From an uncultured Gammaproteobacteria bacterium (GTDB lineage Bacteria > Patescibacteriota > Microgenomatia > UM-FILTER-40-11): a stretch of 42,923 nt of DNA. Location of the stretch: the NCBI GenBank assembly GCA_964452885.1, contig CAYVNK010000001.1:1-42923 (forward strand), given 5' to 3'. The notes beneath the pieces are model-generated. The model saw nothing but the letters and a program-made list of their open reading frames with translations, had not been told where the DNA came from and did no database searches. Below are positions 14,711 to 26,388 of the stretch, in pieces. Each line of letters begins with the position of its first letter. Positions within the stretch are counted from its first letter, which is position 1. A program made the position numbers and the translations under genes.

Positions 14711-14998
14711 CTAATTTTTGGCTGGTTTCCTAAACAGATTCCTTAATTCAATTTTTGCCTGCTGGAGAATTGCCTTGCGGTTGACGGGTAAATTTTTCCC
14801 GGCGCGATTAATGTAAAAATTGAGCATGCTCATGGCAGATTGAAAAGGGGAAGCCTTTCGTCGCAGGGAATTTTCGGCCGACACTTTTAAGGAAACAGCA
14901 ATTTTTTCAGGGTCATTCCAGGCAAATACTCCTTCTTCTAGGTCAAGGGCGATACTGTGTTTGGTTACCTCGCCGGACCAGTTTTTCTTTTTTGGCAT
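14711..14998 (-). CDS. DUF3175 domain protein
   Basis: TKHSIALDLEEGVFAWNDPEKIA-SLK-SAE...RRKASPFQSAMSMLNFYINRAGKNLP matches the DUF3175 family pattern as I recall it. Confidence 0.65.
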   Translation of the reverse strand: MPKKKNWSGEVTKHSIALDLEEGVFAWNDPEKIAVSLKVSAENSLRRKASPFQSAMSMLNFYINRAGKNLPVNRKAILQQAKIELRNLFRKPAKN

Positions 14999-15041: not shown

Positions 15042-18000
15042 ATGTCTAATTCTTCGGATAAAATTCTTAATTCCGAGCAAGTTGAGGCAATTGAACACGG
15101 AGAGGGGCCGCTTTTGATTATTGCCGGAGCAGGAACTGGTAAGACAACCGTGGTTACCGAAAGAATTAAATATTTAATTACTAAAAGAGAGATTTCTCCT
15201 TCGGAAATTTTGGCCCTGACTTTTACGGAAAAAGCTTCTTTGGAAATGCAGGAGCGGGTGGATGTCGCTTTGCCTTTGGGCTATGCCAATATGTGGATTT
15301 CCACTTTTCATACTTTCGGCGATCGGATTTTGCGCAATGAGGTGGTCAATGTCGGCTTGGACCCACAGTATCATTTAATGACTCAGGCAGAAAGTATTCA
15401 ATTTTTGCGCAAAAACCTTTTTGAATTTGATTTAAATTATTTTCGGCCGCTTGGCAACCCCAATAAATTTGTCGAGGGGATGCTTAAGCATTTCAGTCGG
15501 CTTAAAGACGAAGACGTATCGCCCAATGAATATTTTCATTGGGTTCAAGGTCAAAGATCAAAAATCAAAAATCAAAATGATGAGATTGAAACTGAAGCAG
15601 AAGACGAGGTGAAAAAATACGAAGAATTGGCCAAAGCTTTTAAGGTTTATGAAGAGTTGAAAGTAAAAGAAGGGCTGATGGATTTTGAGGATTTAATTGG
15701 CCACGTTTTAACGGTTTTTAGGAAAAGGCCGAGTATTCTTAAAACTTATCAAAAAAAGTTCAAATACGTTCTGGTGGACGAGTTTCAGGATACGAACTTC
15801 AGCCAGTATGAAATGATTAAACTGCTGTCGTCTCCACCCAAGAGTAATTTAACTGTCGTGGGGGACGATAACCAATGCTTGCCGGGTGAAACAGAAATTT
15901 CTCTTCTTGGGGGCAAAAAAAGAATTGATCAAATAAAAGTAGGTGATGTGATACTTACGGCGGTGGGGAAAGGTCACACCTCTGGATCTAAAGTTAGTCG
16001 GGTTTTTAAAAACAAAAAAAAGGCGAGATTGTTAACTTTTACTTTAGAAACGGGAGAGAAAATTACGGTTACAGATAATCATAAAGTGTTTTGTTTTATT
16101 CCTTCTAAAGAAAATAAGAAAGATTTTCATTTTGTTTACTTAATGAAACACCAAGATTACGGTTGGCGGTTGGGTGTAACCAATGATTTAGCCTCCAGGT
16201 TAAGATTGGAAGCCCACGCAGATGGTATTTTATCCATCGGGTCTTATAAAACTGATCAAGAGGCTCGGTATTACGAAGCACTTTTTTCTGCAAGATATGG
16301 ACTTCCGACAGTTCCTTTCAGCTCTCACCCCAAGCAAGCAATTACCGGGGATTATCTTAAAAAACCTTTTGTTGAATTAAAAACCAAGGAAAGGGTTAAG
16401 AAATTGGCGATTGATTTGGGAATTGAGATAAATTCTTTTGGTGTTACAAGAAATGGGGTAGTTAGGGGATCTAGCGATCGGGTAATAGTAAATTTTCAGA
16501 TGTGTTACCGAAATTATCGGAGTAAAACTCACAAAGAAGGGTTTGTTGGCAACCCCGCCATTAGTCATTTGGTTTACATAGAAACATCTTCACAAAAAAC
16601 AATTTCTATCTTAGAAAATGCCGGCCATAAGTTAGCCAAAGCCAAAAAAGGAAAGAGGTTTAGATATACAACTGCCAACATTGCGGAAGCGTGGCAAATG
16701 GCCGATAACCTAGTTATTTTAACCGGAGGAATTTTAAACAAAAAATTTTCCTTAGGAACAAAAAATTATCAACATAAGCCAGCAACTATTGTACCGGCGG
16801 GTAATGTTTGGCCGGGAAATTATTTCCCAGTATTGGAAGGGAAAAGAATAGTTTATAAAAAAATTATTGGCAGAACCGAAGAAGTAAAAGAACTAGTGGT
16901 GTATGATCTGGAAATTGAAAAAACTCACAATTTTATTGCCAATGGGATACCGGTTCACAATTCAATCTATAAATTTAGGGGCGCGGCCATTTCCAATATT
17001 CTGCAGTTTAAAAAAGATTATCCTGAGGCCAAGTGTGTGGTTTTAAACCAAAACTATCGTTCGACTCAAACGATTTTGGATGCTTCTTACAAACTGATTA
17101 AGAATAACGACCCGGACACTTTGGAAGCAAGCTTGGGTATCAGCAAAAAGTTGGAAAAAGTAAGAGAAGTGGAGGAAACACCGGTCGGATTTCTTTGGTC
17201 GGACCGGGTGGAAAACGAAGCCGAGGCAGTGGCCAAGAAAATTTTTGATCTTAAAAACGAGAACGATGCTTTATCCTGGAAAGATTTTGCCGTTTTGGTG
17301 CGTGCCAATAATCATGTCGATCCTTTTATCAAAGCCTTTGTCCGCCGGGGAGCTCCTTATCAATTTTTGGGGCCGGGGATACTTTTCCGCCAGCCAGAAG
17401 TTAAAGATTTAATCGCTTATCTTTCGGTTTTATCTAATTTTGAGGATTCGGTGGCCATGTATCGGCTTTTGGCCATGGATTTCTGGGGGATTTCCGGTCG
17501 GGATTTGGCTTTAATCATCAATTACGGTCGGAAAAATAATTTGTCTATTTTTGAAGCCGGTGAGAAAGTCTTAAAAGACGAATCGGTGGTCATTGCCGAT
17601 AAAACCAAAGAAACATTAAAAAAGTTGATGGAAATGATTTATCGGCATTTGAATTTGGTAAAAAAAGAAACTGCCGGCCAGATTCTTTATTTCTTTTTGG
17701 AAGACAGCGGGCTTTTAAAGCAGTTAACCAATTACAAAACGGCGGCGGACGAGAGAAAGGTGCAAAATATCGCCAAGTTTTTTGACAAACTGAAGACTTA
17801 TGAGGTTGAACACGAAGATGCTTCGGTTTATGCGGTGGTCGATTTTGTTAATCTTTCTTTGGAATTAGGGGAGTCGCCATTGGCGAGCGACTTGGATTGG
17901 TTTGGGAACGACGCGGTTAATATTTTAACGGTGCATTCGGCCAAAGGCCTGGAATTTCCCGTGGTTTTTTTGGTGAATTTGGTTGATCAGCGTTTTCCGA

Positions 18001-19097
18001 CGAATGAGCGGCGGGAGCAGATTCCTATTCCTGAAGAATTGATTAAAGAAGTTTTGCCGCAAGGAGACTTTCATTTGGAAGAAGAAAGACGGCTTTTTTA
18101 TGTGGGCATGACCAGAGCCAGAGACAGACTTTTTTTGACAGGAGCAAATTTTTACGGTGAGGGAAAAAGGGAAAAGAAAGTTTCGGTTTTTGTGAAAGAA
18201 GCGTTAGGCAATATCAAAAATCAAATATCAAATATCAAAAATAAGGAGAACCAATTGTCAATTTTTGATTTTAAACCAACAACTGAAGTTAAACTTCCAA
18301 CTTCCAGTTTCCAACTTCCAACTTCGGTTCCTATCTCCTATTTGTCCTATTCCCAAATTGAGACCTTTAATACCTGTCCTTTGCAATACAAATACCGTTA
18401 TCTTTTAAGAATTCCCACTCCGCCGTCGGCGGCCGCTTCTTTCGGTGAGACAATTCATGAAACAATGAAAGATTTTTATCAAAGAGCAATTGCGGGGCAA
18501 AAGCCCACCAAAGAAGATTTAGTGAAAATTCTTTCCGAAAATTGGAGCCCCTCGGGTTACCCGTCAAAAGCCCATGAAGAAAAATATAAAAAAGAAGGGG
18601 AGAAAATTTTGAGTGAATTTTTTGAAAAATCTTTTAATCCCAAAAATGTACCTTTGACCTTAGAGCAGGTTTTCAGCGTTAAAATCAGTCCGACTTTAAA
18701 AGTTGGCGGTAGGATTGACCGGATTGATCGCGTCAAACGCGATTCGGGTAGAGAAGAAATAGAAATTATTGATTACAAGACCGGCAAATCACCGACCAAA
18801 AAAGATGTCGAAGAAGATTTACAACTAACACTTTATGCTTTGGCGGCCACCGACGGCACTTTAACTTATATGGGCATTTTTAAAAAGACGCCCCAGCCGG
18901 AAGAAGTAAAAATTTCTTTTTATTTTTTTGATAATCAGGAAAAAATTTCCAGCTTTAGGAAAAAAGAAGATTTTCCAAAAATAAAAGAAGAGCTGATTAA
19001 AAAAGCGGAGGAGATAAGCCGGTCGACTTTTTCGCCGACTCCGGGCAAGCTTTGTGATTTTTGTGAGTTTAAATTAATCTGTGAAGCCTGGAGCTAA
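15042..19097 (+). CDS. UvrD/PcrA-type SF1 helicase fused to a C-terminal PD-(D/E)XK (Cas4/AddB-type, 4-Cys) nuclease; intein-containing precursor
   Basis: GAGTGKT (Walker A), VLVDEFQDTN (motif II), VGDDNQ|intein|SIYKFRGA (motif III), NYRST, and TVHSAKGLEFPVVFL...YVGMTRAR. The nuclease part has C-PLQYKYRY, GRIDRIDR, EIIDYKTGK, QLTLYALA and the terminal CDFCEFKLIC. The precursor is 1351 aa, which gives 989 aa after removal of the 362-aa intein. Confidence 0.9.
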   Translation: MSNSSDKILNSEQVEAIEHGEGPLLIIAGAGTGKTTVVTERIKYLITKREISPSEILALTFTEKASLEMQERVDVALPLGYANMWISTFHTFGDRILRNEVVNVGLDPQYHLMTQAESIQFLRKNLFEFDLNYFRPLGNPNKFVEGMLKHFSRLKDEDVSPNEYFHWVQGQRSKIKNQNDEIETEAEDEVKKYEELAKAFKVYEELKVKEGLMDFEDLIGHVLTVFRKRPSILKTYQKKFKYVLVDEFQDTNFSQYEMIKLLSSPPKSNLTVVGDDNQCLPGETEISLLGGKKRIDQIKVGDVILTAVGKGHTSGSKVSRVFKNKKKARLLTFTLETGEKITVTDNHKVFCFIPSKENKKDFHFVYLMKHQDYGWRLGVTNDLASRLRLEAHADGILSIGSYKTDQEARYYEALFSARYGLPTVPFSSHPKQAITGDYLKKPFVELKTKERVKKLAIDLGIEINSFGVTRNGVVRGSSDRVIVNFQMCYRNYRSKTHKEGFVGNPAISHLVYIETSSQKTISILENAGHKLAKAKKGKRFRYTTANIAEAWQMADNLVILTGGILNKKFSLGTKNYQHKPATIVPAGNVWPGNYFPVLEGKRIVYKKIIGRTEEVKELVVYDLEIEKTHNFIANGIPVHNSIYKFRGAAISNILQFKKDYPEAKCVVLNQNYRSTQTILDASYKLIKNNDPDTLEASLGISKKLEKVREVEETPVGFLWSDRVENEAEAVAKKIFDLKNENDALSWKDFAVLVRANNHVDPFIKAFVRRGAPYQFLGPGILFRQPEVKDLIAYLSVLSNFEDSVAMYRLLAMDFWGISGRDLALIINYGRKNNLSIFEAGEKVLKDESVVIADKTKETLKKLMEMIYRHLNLVKKETAGQILYFFLEDSGLLKQLTNYKTAADERKVQNIAKFFDKLKTYEVEHEDASVYAVVDFVNLSLELGESPLASDLDWFGNDAVNILTVHSAKGLEFPVVFLVNLVDQRFPTNERREQIPIPEELIKEVLPQGDFHLEEERRLFYVGMTRARDRLFLTGANFYGEGKREKKVSVFVKEALGNIKNQISNIKNKENQLSIFDFKPTTEVKLPTSSFQLPTSVPISYLSYSQIETFNTCPLQYKYRYLLRIPTPPSAAASFGETIHETMKDFYQRAIAGQKPTKEDLVKILSENWSPSGYPSKAHEEKYKKEGEKILSEFFEKSFNPKNVPLTLEQVFSVKISPTLKVGGRIDRIDRVKRDSGREEIEIIDYKTGKSPTKKDVEEDLQLTLYALAATDGTLTYMGIFKKTPQPEEVKISFYFFDNQEKISSFRKKEDFPKIKEELIKKAEEISRSTFSPTPGKLCDFCEFKLICEAWS
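15550..15577. repeat. Heptanucleotide tandem array (ATCAAAA-type x4)
   Basis: gtcaaag atcaaaa atcaaaa atcaaaa, in frame in the helicase (RSKIKNQN). Confidence 0.9.
15876..16961 (+). mobile_element. Intein (362 aa) inserted in helicase motif III, with an endonuclease-size insert
   Basis: Block A is CLPGETEISLLGG, directly after VGDDNQ. Block B is ITVTDNH (TxxH). Blocks F/G are ELVVYDLEIEKTHNFIANGIPVHN, followed by the +1 Ser of SIYKFRGA. The extein junction restores the canonical DDxQSIYxFRGA motif. Confidence 0.9.
18213..18240. repeat. Heptanucleotide tandem array (ATCAAAW x4)
   Basis: atcaaaa atcaaat atcaaat atcaaaa. It encodes NIKNQISNIKN in the helicase-nuclease linker. Confidence 0.9.
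18294..18328. repeat. Heptanucleotide tandem array (CTTCCAA x5)
   Basis: cttccaa cttccag tttccaa cttccaa cttcggt. It encodes LPTSSFQLPTS in the same linker. Confidence 0.9.
19050..19097 (+). repeat. R1: functional 3' terminus of the helicase-nuclease (LCDFCEFKLICEAWS*)
   Basis: ctt tgt gat ttt tgt gag ttt aaa tta atc tgt gaa gcc tgg agc taa. This is the first of four copies. Confidence 0.9.
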
Positions 19098-19626
19098 ATG
19101 ATTATTGCGGTCGGTTCTAAAAATCCAACTAAGGTCAATGTGGTTAAAAAAGTTTTTACTAAAGGTTTTGGAAATTGTACTGTTATAGGTGTCAAGGTGC
19201 CTTCAGGTGTATCAGATATGCCAATGTGTTTTGATGAGTCATTCAAGGGAGCAAAAAACAGAGCTAAAAACGCTATTAAAAAAAATAAAAAAGGCTGATT
19301 TTGCCGTTGGTTTGGAAGGTGGGTTTGAGGAAACAAAAGAAGGAACTTTTTTGTGCGGTTATGCGGCAGTTATAGATAAAAAAGAAAATTTTGGAATTGG
19401 CGGGAGTTCGAGAGTTTTGGTTCCTGAAAGAATAGTGGCAGAAGTTAAAAAAGGAAAAGAACTAGGTGAGGTAATGGATAAGCTTAGGGGACAAAAAAAT
19501 ACAAAACAACATGATGGAGCAGTTGGCTATTTTACCAGAAATTTGATTCCTAGAACTAAATGGTTTGAAACAACACTTATTTGTGCCCTATCCCATTTTA
19601 TGAAAAAAGAGTTGTACAAAGAATGA
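19098..19626 (+). pseudogene. YjjX/DUF84-like non-canonical purine NTP phosphatase, frameshifted in an A-rich run
   Basis: 19098..19298 reads MIIAVGSKNPTKV...PSGVSDMP...GAKNRAKNAIKK and then stops. The +1 frame (track ORF 19189..19626) continues KKADFAVGLEGG...DGAVGYFT, completing the family pattern. The shift lies within attaaaaaaaataaaaaaggctga (~19275-19298). The ATG abuts the helicase stop (taaATG). Confidence 0.7.
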
Positions 19627-20774: not shown

Positions 20775-21050
20775 ATGAACGGAGATTATATTTCAACTAC
20801 TGTAATTCGTCAAAGAGGACAATTAACACTTCCTAAAAAACTAAGAACTGAAAATAGTTGGCTTGCTGAAGGGATGGTGGTTGCTGTTTTGTCTTCTGTA
20901 CAAAAAGAAGTGAAGATTATTCCTTATAAAGAATCTTCCAAAAAGACCGACTGGAAAGACATTTGGGAGAAAATAAAACTTTCTAGAACTTTTTTGGGTC
21001 AAAGAGGAAATTTATCTCAATTTGTTGTTGAAGACCGATCTGCACATTAA
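20775..21050 (+). CDS. vapB: AbrB/SpoVT-MazE-type antitoxin (VapB-like)
   Basis: IRQRGQLTLPKKLR... looped-hinge-helix motif, 91 aa, immediately upstream of a PIN gene. Confidence 0.75.
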   Translation: MNGDYISTTVIRQRGQLTLPKKLRTENSWLAEGMVVAVLSSVQKEVKIIPYKESSKKTDWKDIWEKIKLSRTFLGQRGNLSQFVVEDRSAH

Positions 21051-21057
21051 TATATGT

Positions 21058-21486
21058 ATGGCAAAAATTAAAAAATTGATTATAGATTCTTCGGTTGGAG
21101 TTAAATGGCTTAACGGCCAAGATGAAAAATATTTGGATCAGGCGGATAAAATTCTCCAAGATTGTGAGAAAATGAAGGTTGCTTTATATGCTCCGGAATT
21201 GGCCAAGTATGAAATTGGCAATGCTATTCGTTATAAGGGATTGGATGAATCTTTTGCTAAAATTTGTTTATCTACCTTGTATTCCTTGCCGATTACTTTT
21301 GTTTCTCTAGAAGAAAAAGATGCCCTTGAAACTTTGGTAATTGCCCAAAAAGAAAACATAACTTATTATGATGCTGTTTTTGTAAATTTGGCCGAGAAAA
21401 TCGGAGGCATCCTAGTAACTGATAATCCTAAACATCAAAGTAAAATAAAAGGGATAAAAGTTGTTAGCTTGAAAAATTATCAATAG
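21058..21486 (+). CDS. vapC: PIN-domain toxin (VapC-like)
   Basis: The ATG at 21058 gives MAKIKKLIIDSSVGVKWL (first acidic residue). Later come PELAKYEIGNA, YYDAVFVNLAE and VTDN. The track ORF start at 21022 overlaps vapB and is less likely. Confidence 0.75.
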   Translation: MAKIKKLIIDSSVGVKWLNGQDEKYLDQADKILQDCEKMKVALYAPELAKYEIGNAIRYKGLDESFAKICLSTLYSLPITFVSLEEKDALETLVIAQKENITYYDAVFVNLAEKIGGILVTDNPKHQSKIKGIKVVSLKNYQ

Positions 21487-23633: not shown

Positions 23634-25454
23634 TTAAAACTCGTTAATCGTCTCTAGAAGATCTTCGGGAATATCTTCTATAAAACGCGAGATTTGATTA
23701 GCGGATCTTTGACCGAAAAAAAGTCTTTTTCTGGCATGGGTCAAAAAAATCTTTTCTTTTGCCCGTGTAATGCCGACGTAACAAAGTCTCCTTTCTTCTT
23801 CCAACTCGTTTTTATCCAGCAAGGAACGAGAATGAGGGAAAAGACCCTCTTCCATGCCGACGATAAAAACAATCGGAAATTCCAACCCCTTAGAGGCGTG
23901 CAAAGTCATTAAAGTTATCGCTTCTTTTTTTTCAAGAGTTGGTTTATCGGGAAGCGATTCTTGGTCGACTAGGGAAACATTTTCCAAAAAATCGGTCAGG
24001 TTAGGAAATTCCGTAGCCACCGAACGAAGTTCTTTAATATTTTCCAAACGGGATAAATCTTCTTCAACTTCAGGATCATAAAGAGATAAATAATCAGCCG
24101 CTTTTAAACTGCCGTCAAAAAGAACAATGGTATCAATTTTACTTAAATCATTGTTAGCGGACAAACTAATCTCTTTCCTCCAAACTAAGAATTTTTCCAA
24201 ACGGTTTTTCCCGATTTTTTCAATTCTTTTTCGGGAAATGGAGTCCTTGGGATTGGCGAGTAATCGCAGGTAGGCAAGGACATCTTTTATTTCCTTTCTT
24301 TGGTAAAAACCGGTCCCGCCGACCAGTCTGTAAGGAATCCCGGCGTGCAGGAAAAATTCTTCTAAAACCCTGGATTGAGCATTAGTCCGGTAAAGAATGG
24401 CAAAATCAGAAAGAGAATGTTTATCTAAAAGAGAACTAATTTTATTAACCACAAATTCCGCTTCTTTAAGTTCGCTGTCCGCTTCAAAAAGACCGACCTT
24501 TTCTCCTTTTTTATTTTTCGTCCAAAGTTTGAGAATCGGGTGAGTGGTATTGTGACTGATAATAAAATAGGCAACATCTAAAATTGCCTGGGTTGACCGG
24601 TAATTTTGTTCCAAATTTATAATTTTTAAATTAGAAAAATCACTTTTTAAGTTTACTAAATTTCGGAAGTTAGCCCCACGGAAACCGTAAATGCTTTGGG
24701 AAGAATCTCCTACTACAGTTAAATTGTGAAATCTTTGAGCCAGTATTTTAGTCAACACATATTGAGCGTGGTTGATGTCCTGATATTCGTCCACCAAAAG
24801 ATATTGGAATTTATTTTGATATTTTCCGAGAACTTCAGGAAATTTTTTAAAAAGGTTAACAACTTTAAAAATCAAGTCATCAAAATCAACCGCAGAACTG
24901 TTGTTCAAAAATCTTTGATAATCTAAATAAATTTCCGCCACATTTTTTTGCCAAGGACCGCGAGTATAATTTAGATATTCCAATTCCGAGATAAGTTCAT
25001 TTTTAGCCTGAGAAATGGTAGCCAAAACCGAAGACGGCTTATAATCTTTTAAAGAGAATTTTAGTTTATTGATAACCTCTTTTATGGCTTCCTGTTGGTC
25101 GCCTTCGTCATAAATTACATAGTTTGGCGGAATACCCAGCAAGTTACCTTCCTGACGTAAGATTTTCGCGCAGAAAGAATGAAAAGTACCGGCATACGGA
25201 GGTGGTAGGTTATGGGGATTAGGGGTTAGTAATTTTAAAATGCGGGATTTCATTTCCCCGGCGGCTTTATTAGTAAAGGTCAGAAGAAGAATATTTTCCG
25301 GTAAAATTTCTCTTTTTAAGATTAAGTAGGCGGCCCGATGAGTTAAAGCCCTGGTTTTGCCACTGCCGGCGCCGGCAAGAATTAAAAGCGGACCGCTTCC
25401 AAAAGTAACGGCTTCTTGTTGAGGGGGATTCAAATCTGCTAAAATATCATTCAT
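23634..25454 (-). CDS. pcrA: ATP-dependent DNA helicase PcrA/UvrD (intein-free)
   Basis: The likely start is MNDILADLNPPQQEAV...ILAGAGSGKT (ATG at 25454-25452). Further motifs are LLVDEYQDIN, VGDSSQSIYGFRGA, NYRST, TLHASKGLEFPIVFIVG and YVGITRAK. The upstream part of track ORF 23634..25694 has no helicase similarity and overlaps the divergent LCP gene. Confidence 0.85.
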   Translation of the reverse strand: MNDILADLNPPQQEAVTFGSGPLLILAGAGSGKTRALTHRAAYLILKREILPENILLLTFTNKAAGEMKSRILKLLTPNPHNLPPPYAGTFHSFCAKILRQEGNLLGIPPNYVIYDEGDQQEAIKEVINKLKFSLKDYKPSSVLATISQAKNELISELEYLNYTRGPWQKNVAEIYLDYQRFLNNSSAVDFDDLIFKVVNLFKKFPEVLGKYQNKFQYLLVDEYQDINHAQYVLTKILAQRFHNLTVVGDSSQSIYGFRGANFRNLVNLKSDFSNLKIINLEQNYRSTQAILDVAYFIISHNTTHPILKLWTKNKKGEKVGLFEADSELKEAEFVVNKISSLLDKHSLSDFAILYRTNAQSRVLEEFFLHAGIPYRLVGGTGFYQRKEIKDVLAYLRLLANPKDSISRKRIEKIGKNRLEKFLVWRKEISLSANNDLSKIDTIVLFDGSLKAADYLSLYDPEVEEDLSRLENIKELRSVATEFPNLTDFLENVSLVDQESLPDKPTLEKKEAITLMTLHASKGLEFPIVFIVGMEEGLFPHSRSLLDKNELEEERRLCYVGITRAKEKIFLTHARKRLFFGQRSANQISRFIEDIPEDLLETINEF

Positions 25455-26388
25455 GGTTAAAAAAAGACCTCTTCTTTTTCTGGCCTGCTTTTTGATTTTA
25501 CTATTTTTTTTGGGTTTTGGGATTGGCAGATTAATAAAAGAGACGTACTTTAGAGGAATTAAAAACCAGAATGGAGTCACAAATTTTCTTTTGGTTGGTA
25601 TCAGGGGATTTGAAACAAACGGCGCCGATTTGACCGATACAATGATTTTTGTTTCCTTAAGTAAAAATACCGGGGTATCTTCGGTCATTACCATTCCCCG
25701 TGATCTTTGGATTAATTCGCTTCAGGCAAAAATCAACAGCGCATATCATTATGGGGGATTTGATTTGGCAAAAAAGACTGTTGGTGAAGTTTTAGGTCAG
25801 GAAATTAATTATATGGTGGTCATTAATTTTGAAAGTTTTGGCAAAGTAATTGATCTTTTGGGAGGAATAGAAATAGATGTAAAAACAGCTTTTGATGATT
25901 TTAAATATCCGATTGCCGGTAAGGAAAATGATTTGTGTGATGGTGATAAAGAATTGAAATGCCGGTATGAACATCTTCATTTTGACGCCGGTAAACAGAT
26001 AATGTCAGGAACAGTAGTTCTTAAATTTGTTCGCAGCCGCAATGCCGTAGGAGAAGAAGGTACTGATTTTGCCCGTTCGGTCAGACAACAACGGGTAATA
26101 ATCGGAATTAAACAAAAAATCCTAAGCAAAGAATTTTATTTTAATCCAGTAAGGGTGGTTGGGCTTTGGAATACCTTCATGGAATATTTAACCATTGATA
26201 TTAATCGGTATGAATATGGTAATTTGGCTTTGCTTTTGAAAAGAATTAATTGGAACGAAATAAAATCTACATCTTTTGATAATCTTTTGATTAACCCTAA
26301 AATGCATTATTCCAAACAGTGGGTTTTATTGCCTAAAGACGGTACGGGAGAGGAAATTAAAAAATTTGTAGCCGATTTCCTAAGGTAA
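25453..26388 (+). CDS. LytR-CpsA-Psr (LCP) family glycopolymer phosphotransferase
   Basis: N-terminal TM anchor, then NFLLVGIRG...DLTDTMIFVSL...SVITIPRDLWI...VVINFESFGKVIDLLGGIEIDV...VRSR. Confidence 0.8.
   Translation: MVKKRPLLFLACFLILLFFLGFGIGRLIKETYFRGIKNQNGVTNFLLVGIRGFETNGADLTDTMIFVSLSKNTGVSSVITIPRDLWINSLQAKINSAYHYGGFDLAKKTVGEVLGQEINYMVVINFESFGKVIDLLGGIEIDVKTAFDDFKYPIAGKENDLCDGDKELKCRYEHLHFDAGKQIMSGTVVLKFVRSRNAVGEEGTDFARSVRQQRVIIGIKQKILSKEFYFNPVRVVGLWNTFMEYLTIDINRYEYGNLALLLKRINWNEIKSTSFDNLLINPKMHYSKQWVLLPKDGTGEEIKKFVADFLR

Follow-up and report, generated by a model that had tools for sequence, protein, structure and literature searches.

The window analysed here, the whole of a 42,923-nucleotide stretch of DNA from an uncultured Gammaproteobacteria bacterium (assembly GCA_964452885.1, contig CAYVNK010000001.1; placed by GTDB in Patescibacteriota, Microgenomatia), encodes a UvrD-type superfamily 1 (SF1) helicase-nuclease whose motif III is interrupted by a class-1 intein at 15876..16961. 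Inteins are the textbook hosts of LAGLIDADG and, rarely, HNH endonucleases. In contrast, the insert of the window intein is likely to be a GIY-YIG-like homing endonuclease of predicted activity, and the evidence set out below supports a view of its nuclease module as either divergent within the GIY-YIG superfamily or closely derived from it. An earlier reading of the letters and their translated open reading frames (ORFs), here called the sequence-only reading, had described the insert as GIY-YIG-like, and a profile search, PF01541 matches in relatives, profile-profile alignment with hhalign, the topology of AlphaFold2 models and structural comparison with Foldseek all agree with that description for its N-terminal part.

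A class-1 intein at motif III of a helicase-nuclease

The host gene, the intein and its splicing domain were delimited as follows.

15042..19097, + strand: host gene precursor of 1351 amino acids (aa), a UvrD-type SF1 helicase with a C-terminal PD-(D/E)XK nuclease, 989 aa once spliced
15876..16961, + strand: class-1 intein of 362 aa (C1 to N362), in frame, precursor residues 279-640, between Q278 and S641
15876..16115, + strand: N-terminal Hint lobe, intein residues 1-80, with block A (C1) and block B (T66-x-x-H69); TIGR01445 spans residues 1-72
16767..16961, + strand: C-terminal Hint lobe, residues ~298-362, with blocks F and G (VVYDLEIEKTHNFIANGIPVHN); TIGR01443 spans residues 342-362
16962..16964, + strand: codon of the +1 Ser, the C-extein nucleophile, read from the translation

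The host ORF matched UvrD-helicase (4.6e-70), UvrD_C (1.7e-56) and PDDEXK_1 (1.6e-43) in Pfam. Its intein reads CLPGETEISL...TVTDNH...VVYDLEIEKTHNFIANGIPVHN, followed by S, and its excision joins VGDDNQ to SIYKFRGA, which restores SF1 helicase motif III; the reconstructed 60-bp intein-less site of the host gene is AATTTAACTGTCGTGGGGGACGATAACCAA↓TCAATCTATAAATTTAGGGGCGCGGCCATT, where the arrow, as below, marks the junction. The G+C content was 0.370 in the intein and 0.399 in the exteins, and the composition gave no clear sign of a recent arrival of the intein.

The Hint blocks on which the sequence-only reading had relied (C1 after VGDDNQ, TVTDNH, and VVYDLEIEKTHNFIANGIPVHN before Ser) were found above cut-off in both Pfam and NCBIfam and belonged to a Hint fold in the model. 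In Pfam, the intein matched Intein_splicing (E=2.8e-15, 56.9 bits against a cut-off of 35.8) and, also above threshold, Hint (E=1.3e-7), and in NCBIfam it matched intein_Nterm TIGR01445 (30.0 bits, cut-off 24.5) and intein_Cterm TIGR01443 (35.7 bits, cut-off 15.6), while both of its ends matched solved mini-inteins in a search of PDB sequences. An AlphaFold2 model of the whole intein, built with the family alignment as input, had a predicted local distance difference test score (pLDDT) of 94 and a predicted template modelling score (pTM) of 0.90. Foldseek matched this model to solved inteins in the PDB through the Hint fold (E=1e-7 to 1e-3), with a TMt of 0.82 for the Mtu RecA mini-intein. Among the 109 inteins collected from all sources, C1, H69 and N362 were invariant, T66 was Thr in 103 and Ser in 6, and H361 was retained in 108; the +1 residue across the family was Ser or Cys, and Thr once. 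With blocks A and B, blocks F and G followed by Ser, a predicted Hint fold and an in-frame insertion whose removal restores the motif, the element can be assigned to class 1. Given its intact catalytic residues and the likely importance of motif III to the helicase, the intein would be expected to undergo protein splicing.

The insert contains a GIY-YIG-like subdomain

The insert between the Hint halves was found to be ~220 aa long, in frame, at intein residues ~80-300, shorter than the ~250 aa first estimated. Three parts were distinguished.

16125..16319, + strand: divergent GIY-YIG-like subdomain, intein residues 84-148, identified by profile, hhalign, Foldseek and AlphaFold2 topology
16344..16421, + strand: two-helix segment, residues ~157-182, with model helices at 159-167 and 170-181 and the family consensus DT......L..DL.I
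16452..16766, + strand: C-terminal alpha/beta subdomain, residues ~193-297, with a basic K-K-G-x-R-x-R hairpin, delimited from the model secondary structure

Scans of the window insert against Pfam, NCBIfam and PHROGs at E<=10 gave no LAGLIDADG, no HNH and nothing above threshold, in line with the sequence-only reading, which had seen neither motif. Foldseek with the whole-intein model returned Hint matches only, so that an insert-only AlphaFold2 model (pLDDT 89.8) was needed for structural comparison. Some actinophage inteins carry out-of-frame nucleases (10.1101/2025.01.02.630785); a nuclease hidden in another frame or on the antisense strand was ruled out here, as no ORF longer than 63 aa was present in those frames within the intein.

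The motif proposed in the sequence-only reading, FHFVYLMKHQDYGWRLGVTNDLASRLRLEAH...QEARYYEALFSARYG, was located at intein residues 84-142. In two AlphaFold2 models, DSSP assigned residues 84-148 to beta1 (85-92), beta2 (96-102), alpha1 (105-111), beta3 (117-124) and alpha2 (127-141), a beta-beta-alpha-beta-alpha order which we identify, with moderate confidence and from the models, as the topology of the GIY-YIG fold. A single-sequence phmmer search of 177,635 PDB sequences gave no significant match; the sole match, at E=0.28, was the UPF0213 protein 1zg2, whose alignment (opposite HFVYLMKHQDYGWRLGVTNDLASRLRLEAH) kept the register of the motif. When a profile of 32 subdomain sequences was used instead, the top two PDB matches were the UPF0213 proteins 1zg2 (E=0.0086) and 1ywl (E=0.18). 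We take UPF0213 to be a GIY-YIG family, which is backed by the presence of PF01541 in relatives of E. coli YhbQ. When the profile covered the entire insert, the indel between subfamilies caused the 1zg2 match to be lost. PF01541 was also the commonest Pfam match among the members (5 of 32, all sub-threshold, best E=0.019), and the clan member MUG113 was matched in one of them.

The subdomain was further aligned by hhalign with GIY-YIG reference profiles constructed from T4 I-TevI, I-TevII, SegA, SegB, SegC, SegF, SegG and DenA and from E. coli UvrC, Cho and YhbQ, enlarged by 120 retrieved proteins that were mostly PF01541-annotated. The score was 26.5-27.0 (P ~1e-4, probability 56-61%, 54-59 columns). 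Of 200 column-shuffled controls (mean 9-10, standard deviation (SD) 2, maximum 19) none reached this score, which lies ~8 SD above them, and the reversed profile scored 11-12. Residues 84-148 are related to the GIY-YIG superfamily in both homology and fold.

Foldseek comparison of the insert model with BFVD gave at least 14 proteins named as GIY-YIG, Seg-like or intron-associated endonucleases or as T5orf172, and no protein named LAGLIDADG among the top 50. The top three were large viral proteins (one helicase, one protein without a name and one labelled a methyltransferase; E=5e-10 to 5e-6), which by their modelled structures probably carry the same insert. The methyltransferase-annotated protein, A0A8S5TZY8 (782 aa, 'Adenine specific DNA methyltransferase', Myoviridae sp. 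ctCuC1), matched at E=5e-6 over 129 columns with a root-mean-square deviation (rmsd) of 3.4 A, and suggests that proteins other than helicases may carry the module too, in inteins or in fusions.

Conservation of the putative active site

Six conserved residues of the GIY-YIG-like subdomain were mapped to codons.

16137-16139, + strand: Y88
16167-16169, + strand: R98
16173-16175, + strand: G100
16197-16199, + strand: R108
16209-16211, + strand: E112
16275-16277, + strand: E134

All six were retained together in 108 of the 109 inteins, so purifying selection acts on the insert as strongly as on the splicing residues. Y88, which lies in the context F-V-Y88-L-M in the window, was invariant (109/109). 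The lone exception to the full set was a shortened intein of 257 aa from a metagenome-assembled genome (MAG) of Actinomycetota (JAMCWL010000001.1). At this locus the intein occupies ORF residues ~260-517, at the same site, and keeps Y88, R98 and G100 with most of the insert gone, which looks like a decaying endonuclease domain.

GIY-YIG nucleases carry out metal-dependent DNA cleavage, typically leaving 2-nt 3' overhangs; the first Tyr activates water, the scissile phosphate is contacted by the second Tyr together with the Arg and the His or Lys, and a Glu binds the single metal. In the hhalign alignment with I-TevI, Y88 is paired with Y6, R98 with Y17, G100 with G19, R108 with R27 and E134 with E75. 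The window subfamily has the spacing Y-x9-R-x-G-x7-R-x3-E, as compared with Y6-x10-Y17-x-G19-x7-R27-x3-H31 in I-TevI. The helix-1 Arg is present as R108, 8 residues past the Gly as in I-TevI, and the metal-binding Glu as E134, opposite E75, each in 108/109 inteins. E112 corresponds to H31 by spacing, hhalign placing a gap there. The sequence-only reading had counted a His, H114, as part of the motif; this residue is not conserved, and the conserved residue there is E112.

Distribution of the intein family

An exhaustive HMMER search of 1.84 billion representative proteins detected 163 relatives at E<=1e-3, of which 53 also passed E<=1e-10; nearly all were UvrD/PcrA-type proteins of 900-1400 aa with the match at residues ~330-600. 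A word-indexed protein search with the insert or the family alignment as query returned no relatives; this index appears to miss the insert family, and its blank result was disregarded. Over the whole intein, 69 metagenomic proteins could be aligned, with the junctions GDxxQ↓C...HN↓(S/C)IYxFRGA. In an alignment of 37 inteins, sharing 26-48% identity, C1, T66, H69, H361 and N362 were invariant, as were Y88, M90, R98, G100, R108, E112, E134 and P144 of the insert.

A further 39 loci, all in MAGs, were found in GTDB representative genomes with one narrow peptide pattern; such patterns undercount the family, so that the genome and viral locus counts given here are lower bounds. Many of the hosts are Patescibacteria (Saccharibacteria, Falkowbacteria, Curtissbacteria, Parcubacteria, Microgenomates and Buchananbacteria), and the others include Rokubacteria, uncultured Gammaproteobacteria, Omnitrophota, Margulisbacteria, Saganbacteria, Methylomirabilia and Actinomycetota. 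Wherever both junctions of a genome locus were readable, the intein occupied one and the same motif-III junction, and most of the ORFs were ~1300-1400 aa long; six IMG/VR viral contigs of up to 300 kb, jumbo-phage contigs among them, likewise had it at helicase motif III. The family is restricted to sites in SF1 helicases, which host the element in all 39 genome loci, the 6 viral contigs and the 41 GenBank phages described below.

One of the viral contigs (IMG/VR UViG_3300025150_000016) encodes two inteins with the same type of insert in a single helicase, which shows that inserts of this family can occupy more than one site. The first lies at residues ~640-992 of the helicase ORF, at motif III (GDDKQ↓C...THN↓SIYEFRGA), and the second at residues ~1044-1403, after motif IV (NYRS...LIKHN↓C...SHN↓SKQIP).

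Among the bacterial copies, intein and extein identities correlated (r=0.72), with discordant pairs in both directions, and no near-identical inteins were seen in distant hosts among the copies compared. This pattern fits old and occasional transfer, and is not evidence of recent homing of the window copy. Between the window and a gammaproteobacterial MAG of the Nevskiaceae (DATLBE010000028.1), the extein flanks were 60% identical and the inteins 48%, whereas the reverse was seen with patescibacterial relatives (intein ~48-51%, extein ~40-42%); these identities hint at transfer of the helicase gene or of the intein between phyla.

Intein-plus and intein-minus alleles in E. coli phages

When the window insert was compared with GenBank phages by tblastn no match was obtained. 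With a viral family member as a bridge, the insert was found in 41 GenBank phage records, mostly of phi92-like/Justusliebigvirus E. coli phages. In two of these, JohannJBalmer (Bas62, MZ501084, gene product bas62_0080) and PaulScherrer, the protein is annotated as an 'intein-containing UvrD / Rep family helicase precursor' with the nuclease type unnamed, and the family hidden Markov model matched the annotated JohannJBalmer intein at E=1.8e-41. The GenBank 'intein' feature in MZ501084 takes in the +1 Cys codon and is one residue too long at its C-terminus. These phage inteins belong to the same family as that of the window, occupy the same motif-III site and keep the same six residues. The Bas62 intein is nevertheless distant from the window copy, matching it in a one-sequence phmmer comparison at E=5e-7 and within the GIY-YIG-like part alone. 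Its subfamily is the one with an extra loop before the R...E helix, and its +1 residue is Cys, as opposed to the +1 Ser of the window copy.

A 600-nt spliced-extein query found 80 phage records with an uninterrupted site and ~37 with an insertion, the intein-less helicase site of phages EmilieFrey and alia reading ...GTAGTAGTGGTGGGTGACGAATATCAG↓AGCATCTACCAGTTCCGTGG.... Like JohannJBalmer and PaulScherrer, phi92 is intein-plus. Phage alia (NC_052655, intein-minus) and Justusliebigvirus alia (OZ035770, intein-plus) show 98-100% identity over 6.6 kb elsewhere, and they differ here in two respects. The first is a clean 1038-nt insertion. The second is a tract of ~27 nt upstream and ~50 nt downstream of the insertion with ~29 mostly synonymous changes, plus the +1 Ser to Cys. 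This gene-conversion signature is what double-strand-break repair with co-conversion, or else selection for cleavage-resistant sites, would be expected to leave behind, and as either reading calls for an active site-specific nuclease, it would imply that one exists somewhere in the family.

Points against a GIY-YIG homing endonuclease, and alternative readings

Several observations weigh against the assignment of the insert as an active GIY-YIG-like nuclease. The window's own sequence gave no PF01541 match and no GIY-YIG match in the family reached a curated threshold (Pfam E>=0.019), the matches in 5 of 32 relatives all lying below it. With a broader query profile the hhalign probability fell to 19-38%; the named GIY-YIG matches in BFVD, at probabilities of up to 0.98-0.99, had modest E-values (8e-3 to 8e-2), and the lone GIY-YIG match of Foldseek in the PDB was 1zg2 (E=0.096, probability 0.47). 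Within the motif itself, the Tyr of YIG is replaced by an invariant Arg (R98), its Gly being kept as G100, and the His, Tyr or Lys expected at Arg+4 (H31 of I-TevI) is replaced by Glu (E112). After helix 2 there is no conserved Asn (N90 of I-TevI), the sequence reading Y141-G-[IL]-P144-T-x-x-F148, and about half of the family has an extra loop of 10-12 residues between the YIG-equivalent strand and the R...E helix. The mobility signature was drawn from the phage relatives and not from the window copy; the window's exact protein was present on at least 24 JGI/ENA metagenome contigs, and such unchanged recurrence fits fixation as well as activity. Lastly, the best PDB matches of the insert-only model were LAGLIDADG meganucleases, namely I-SmaMI (E=9.5e-3, probability 0.2, rmsd ~16 A) and, in local matches of ~80 columns, I-CvuI and I-LtrI (probability 0.72-0.77).

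The Asn motif is dispensable or absent in some GIY-YIG families, Slx1 among them (PMC1564403). From GIY-YIG chemistry, the Arg that replaces the YIG Tyr could still touch the phosphate, and the extra Glu could add a metal ligand. We do not class the module as a canonical GIY-YIG member, since two defining positions are changed and the curated threshold is not reached, but most likely it works like a GIY-YIG enzyme, and its altered active site would still cut DNA.

The strongest alternative is that the insert is of GIY-YIG descent and no longer cuts, having been kept for DNA binding, for the stability or regulation of splicing or for some benefit to the host, with vertical descent and rare transfer accounting for its distribution. 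The two replaced catalytic positions and the missing Asn motif would be expected of such a domain, as would the correlation of intein with extein identities, the lack of near-identical inteins in distant bacterial hosts and the identity of the window protein on many contigs. We regard this alternative as unlikely, as conservation of the six active-site-like residues equals that of the splicing residues, and the only copy without the full set is shortened, as expected of a decaying nuclease. It is also at odds with the phage alleles, in which presence or absence of the intein together with a short recoded junction tract, in otherwise 98-100% identical genomes, makes up the classic footprint of endonuclease-driven conversion, and with the second intein carrying the same insert elsewhere in one phage helicase.

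A second alternative, that the insert is a highly degenerate LAGLIDADG endonuclease with a superficial likeness to GIY-YIG, arises from the LAGLIDADG meganucleases that head the PDB matches and from the C-terminal subdomain, which in the insert model has the secondary structure beta-beta-alpha-beta-alpha-beta. This we consider very improbable. Neither the LAGLIDADG motif nor a Pfam LAGLIDADG or Hom_end match occurred in any of the 61 members scanned (37+24), and no LAGLIDADG-named entry appeared in the BFVD list given above. The full-length LAGLIDADG alignments of Foldseek were poor (probability 0.08-0.3, rmsd 15-17 A, template modelling score ~0.2), nothing in the PDB matched the insert-only model at E<=1e-3, and LAGLIDADG inteins superposed on the whole-intein model through its Hint part alone (TMq 0.26-0.29, rmsd >20 A). 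At most, then, the C-terminal DNA-binding subdomain would be LAGLIDADG-derived. HNH was likewise absent from the insert in Pfam, NCBIfam and PHROGs and in the Foldseek searches of PDB and BFVD. Of the outcomes that would have contradicted the sequence-only reading, an insert of LAGLIDADG, HNH or non-nuclease type, only the first was approached, and weakly, by these low-probability matches of the C-terminal half.

The C-terminal subdomain gave only noise in profile searches of Pfam and the PDB (an ArsR winged helix at E=0.05), and the C-terminal DNA-binding domain of T4 MotA was a weak Foldseek match, ranked behind 1zg2. The platform formed by its beta-sheet may be similar to half of a LAGLIDADG domain or to a saddle of the MotA type, and a LAGLIDADG likeness of this part is not in conflict with the GIY-YIG assignment of residues 84-148. 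The two-helix segment, which had weak IF2_N-type Pfam matches in 2 members only, may be a helix-turn-helix-like DNA-binding element, and residues ~157-297 as a whole are probably a DNA-binding module.

Finally, that the motif match arose by chance in an unrelated novel fold is most improbable. Taken one by one, the database matches all fall short of conventional significance, but five independent comparisons agree on both superfamily and residue register, none of the 200 shuffled profiles reaches the hhalign score, and recurrence in 163 clusters, the conserved residues and the ~8 SD score together make the likeness more than chance.

Proposed mode of action and relation to known systems

For the preferred reading of the insert as a GIY-YIG-like homing endonuclease, the following cycle can be proposed. 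The intein would splice itself out of the UvrD-type helicase-nuclease at motif III, and the insert would act as a homing endonuclease after, or even before, splicing. Its helical and alpha/beta parts, possibly with help from the Hint domain, would bind the uninterrupted motif-III coding sequence, which the GIY-YIG-like module would then cut. In the putative active site, Y88 would serve as the general base, E134 would hold the metal, perhaps together with E112, and the scissile phosphate would be the point of action of R98 and R108. Recombinational repair from the intein-bearing allele would copy the intein in. The window copy itself may be active at present.

The module resembles the GIY-YIG superfamily (I-TevI, I-BmoI, T4 Seg proteins, the N-domains of UvrC and Cho, UPF0213/YhbQ, Slx1 and T4 EndoII) in being a beta-beta-alpha-beta-alpha unit of ~65-100 aa with the GIY Tyr, the YIG Gly, the helix-1 Arg and the helix-2 Glu, and, in the window subfamily, I-TevI-like spacing. 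It departs from that superfamily in its invariant Arg for the YIG Tyr, its Glu for His/Tyr/Lys, its scores below the PF01541 threshold and the lack of an evident Asn motif. As in GIY-YIG homing endonucleases, the arrangement is bipartite, with a catalytic module followed by separate, presumed DNA-binding parts, and goes with a self-splicing element in genes for DNA metabolism, in phages as in bacteria. However, whereas the known enzymes stand alone or are carried by group I introns, the window module forms an in-frame part of an intein. NUMOD, Zn-finger and I-TevI-type DNA-binding domains are absent from it, and unlike designs with a long flexible linker, the window intein is predicted to be compact (pTM as above).

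With LAGLIDADG inteins (PI-SceI, PI-PfuI and PI-TkoII) and HNH inteins, the window intein shares a class-1 Hint domain whose halves are separated, where this is usual, by an insert in frame. Like these canonical bifunctional inteins, it is inserted at a conserved catalytic motif of a DNA-metabolism enzyme and has a sporadic distribution with decayed copies, such as the 257-aa intein. The difference lies in the nuclease module, which comes from another superfamily and has no LAGLIDADG or HNH motifs.

The sequence-only reading had judged that a GIY-YIG intein endonuclease would be unusual, and the literature agrees: Dunin-Horkawicz et al. found GIY-YIG members 'not ... in inteins' (PMC1564403), and reviews and surveys place them in group I introns or free-standing genes (PMC1564403, PMC2677866). 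Sixteen UvrD inteins have been catalogued, with the nuclease type not discussed (PMC4760082). A related arrangement is that of Dassa et al. (2009), who described fractured genes in which a free-standing GIY-YIG or Vsr-like gene lies between the halves of a split intein, and proposed them as a route to new types of intein nuclease (PMC2677866). In both cases a GIY-YIG-type nuclease is physically associated with an intein; the fractured genes have a separate ORF and a split intein, whereas the window encodes a single continuous polypeptide. No description of an in-frame GIY-YIG intein was found in the open-access full-text literature, an earlier description elsewhere being possible.

The paralogous helicase and the local neighbourhood

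Four further genes of the window were annotated outside the element.

23634..25694, - strand: paralogous PcrA/UvrD-type helicase, motif III uninterrupted (VVGDSSQSIYGFRGA)
14711..14998, - strand: DUF3175 protein
19189..19626, + strand: NTPase_I-T protein
21022..21486, + strand: PIN-domain protein (weak match)

The last three were assigned from precomputed Pfam results on identical metagenome contigs and have no obvious link to the intein. The intact, uninterrupted motif III that the sequence-only reading had noted in the pcrA-like paralogue was borne out by VVGDSSQSIYGFRGA. Its site shares 35/60 nt with the reconstructed intein-less host site, and with only this much in common it was set aside as an ectopic target. 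The longest ORF of the paralogue opens with ~80 residues that are not helicase-like (MVMTEDTPVFLLKETKIIV...) and overlaps a divergent ORF (25453..26388, + strand) by ~240 nt; its real start is probably further downstream, near 25454.

Implications

Taken together with its relatives, the window intein may represent an unrecognised class of bifunctional inteins, in which an in-frame, re-tooled GIY-YIG module (Tyr-Arg-Arg-Glu-Glu) is combined with a novel DNA-binding domain, specialises in SF1 motifs and is homing now in phi92-like phages and candidate-phyla bacteria; this wider proposal is put forward tentatively, as a good possibility that falls a little short of an even chance. The cultured E. 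coli phages have natural intein-minus sisters, so that the hypothesis lends itself to direct laboratory tests. With changes at two catalytic positions, such a GIY-YIG variant would be of mechanistic interest, and the intein may provide a nuclease scaffold that is compact, monomeric and linked to protein splicing.

Although abundant in uncultured lineages, Patescibacteria among them, the family is missed by current domain libraries, so that intein surveys would probably score it as lacking a recognised nuclease. If the assignment is correct, it would add a further nuclease superfamily to those captured by inteins, beside LAGLIDADG and HNH, would supply the 'contiguous' end-point predicted by the fractured-gene model of Dassa et al., and would support the model in which the splicing domain came first and the nuclease invaded later.

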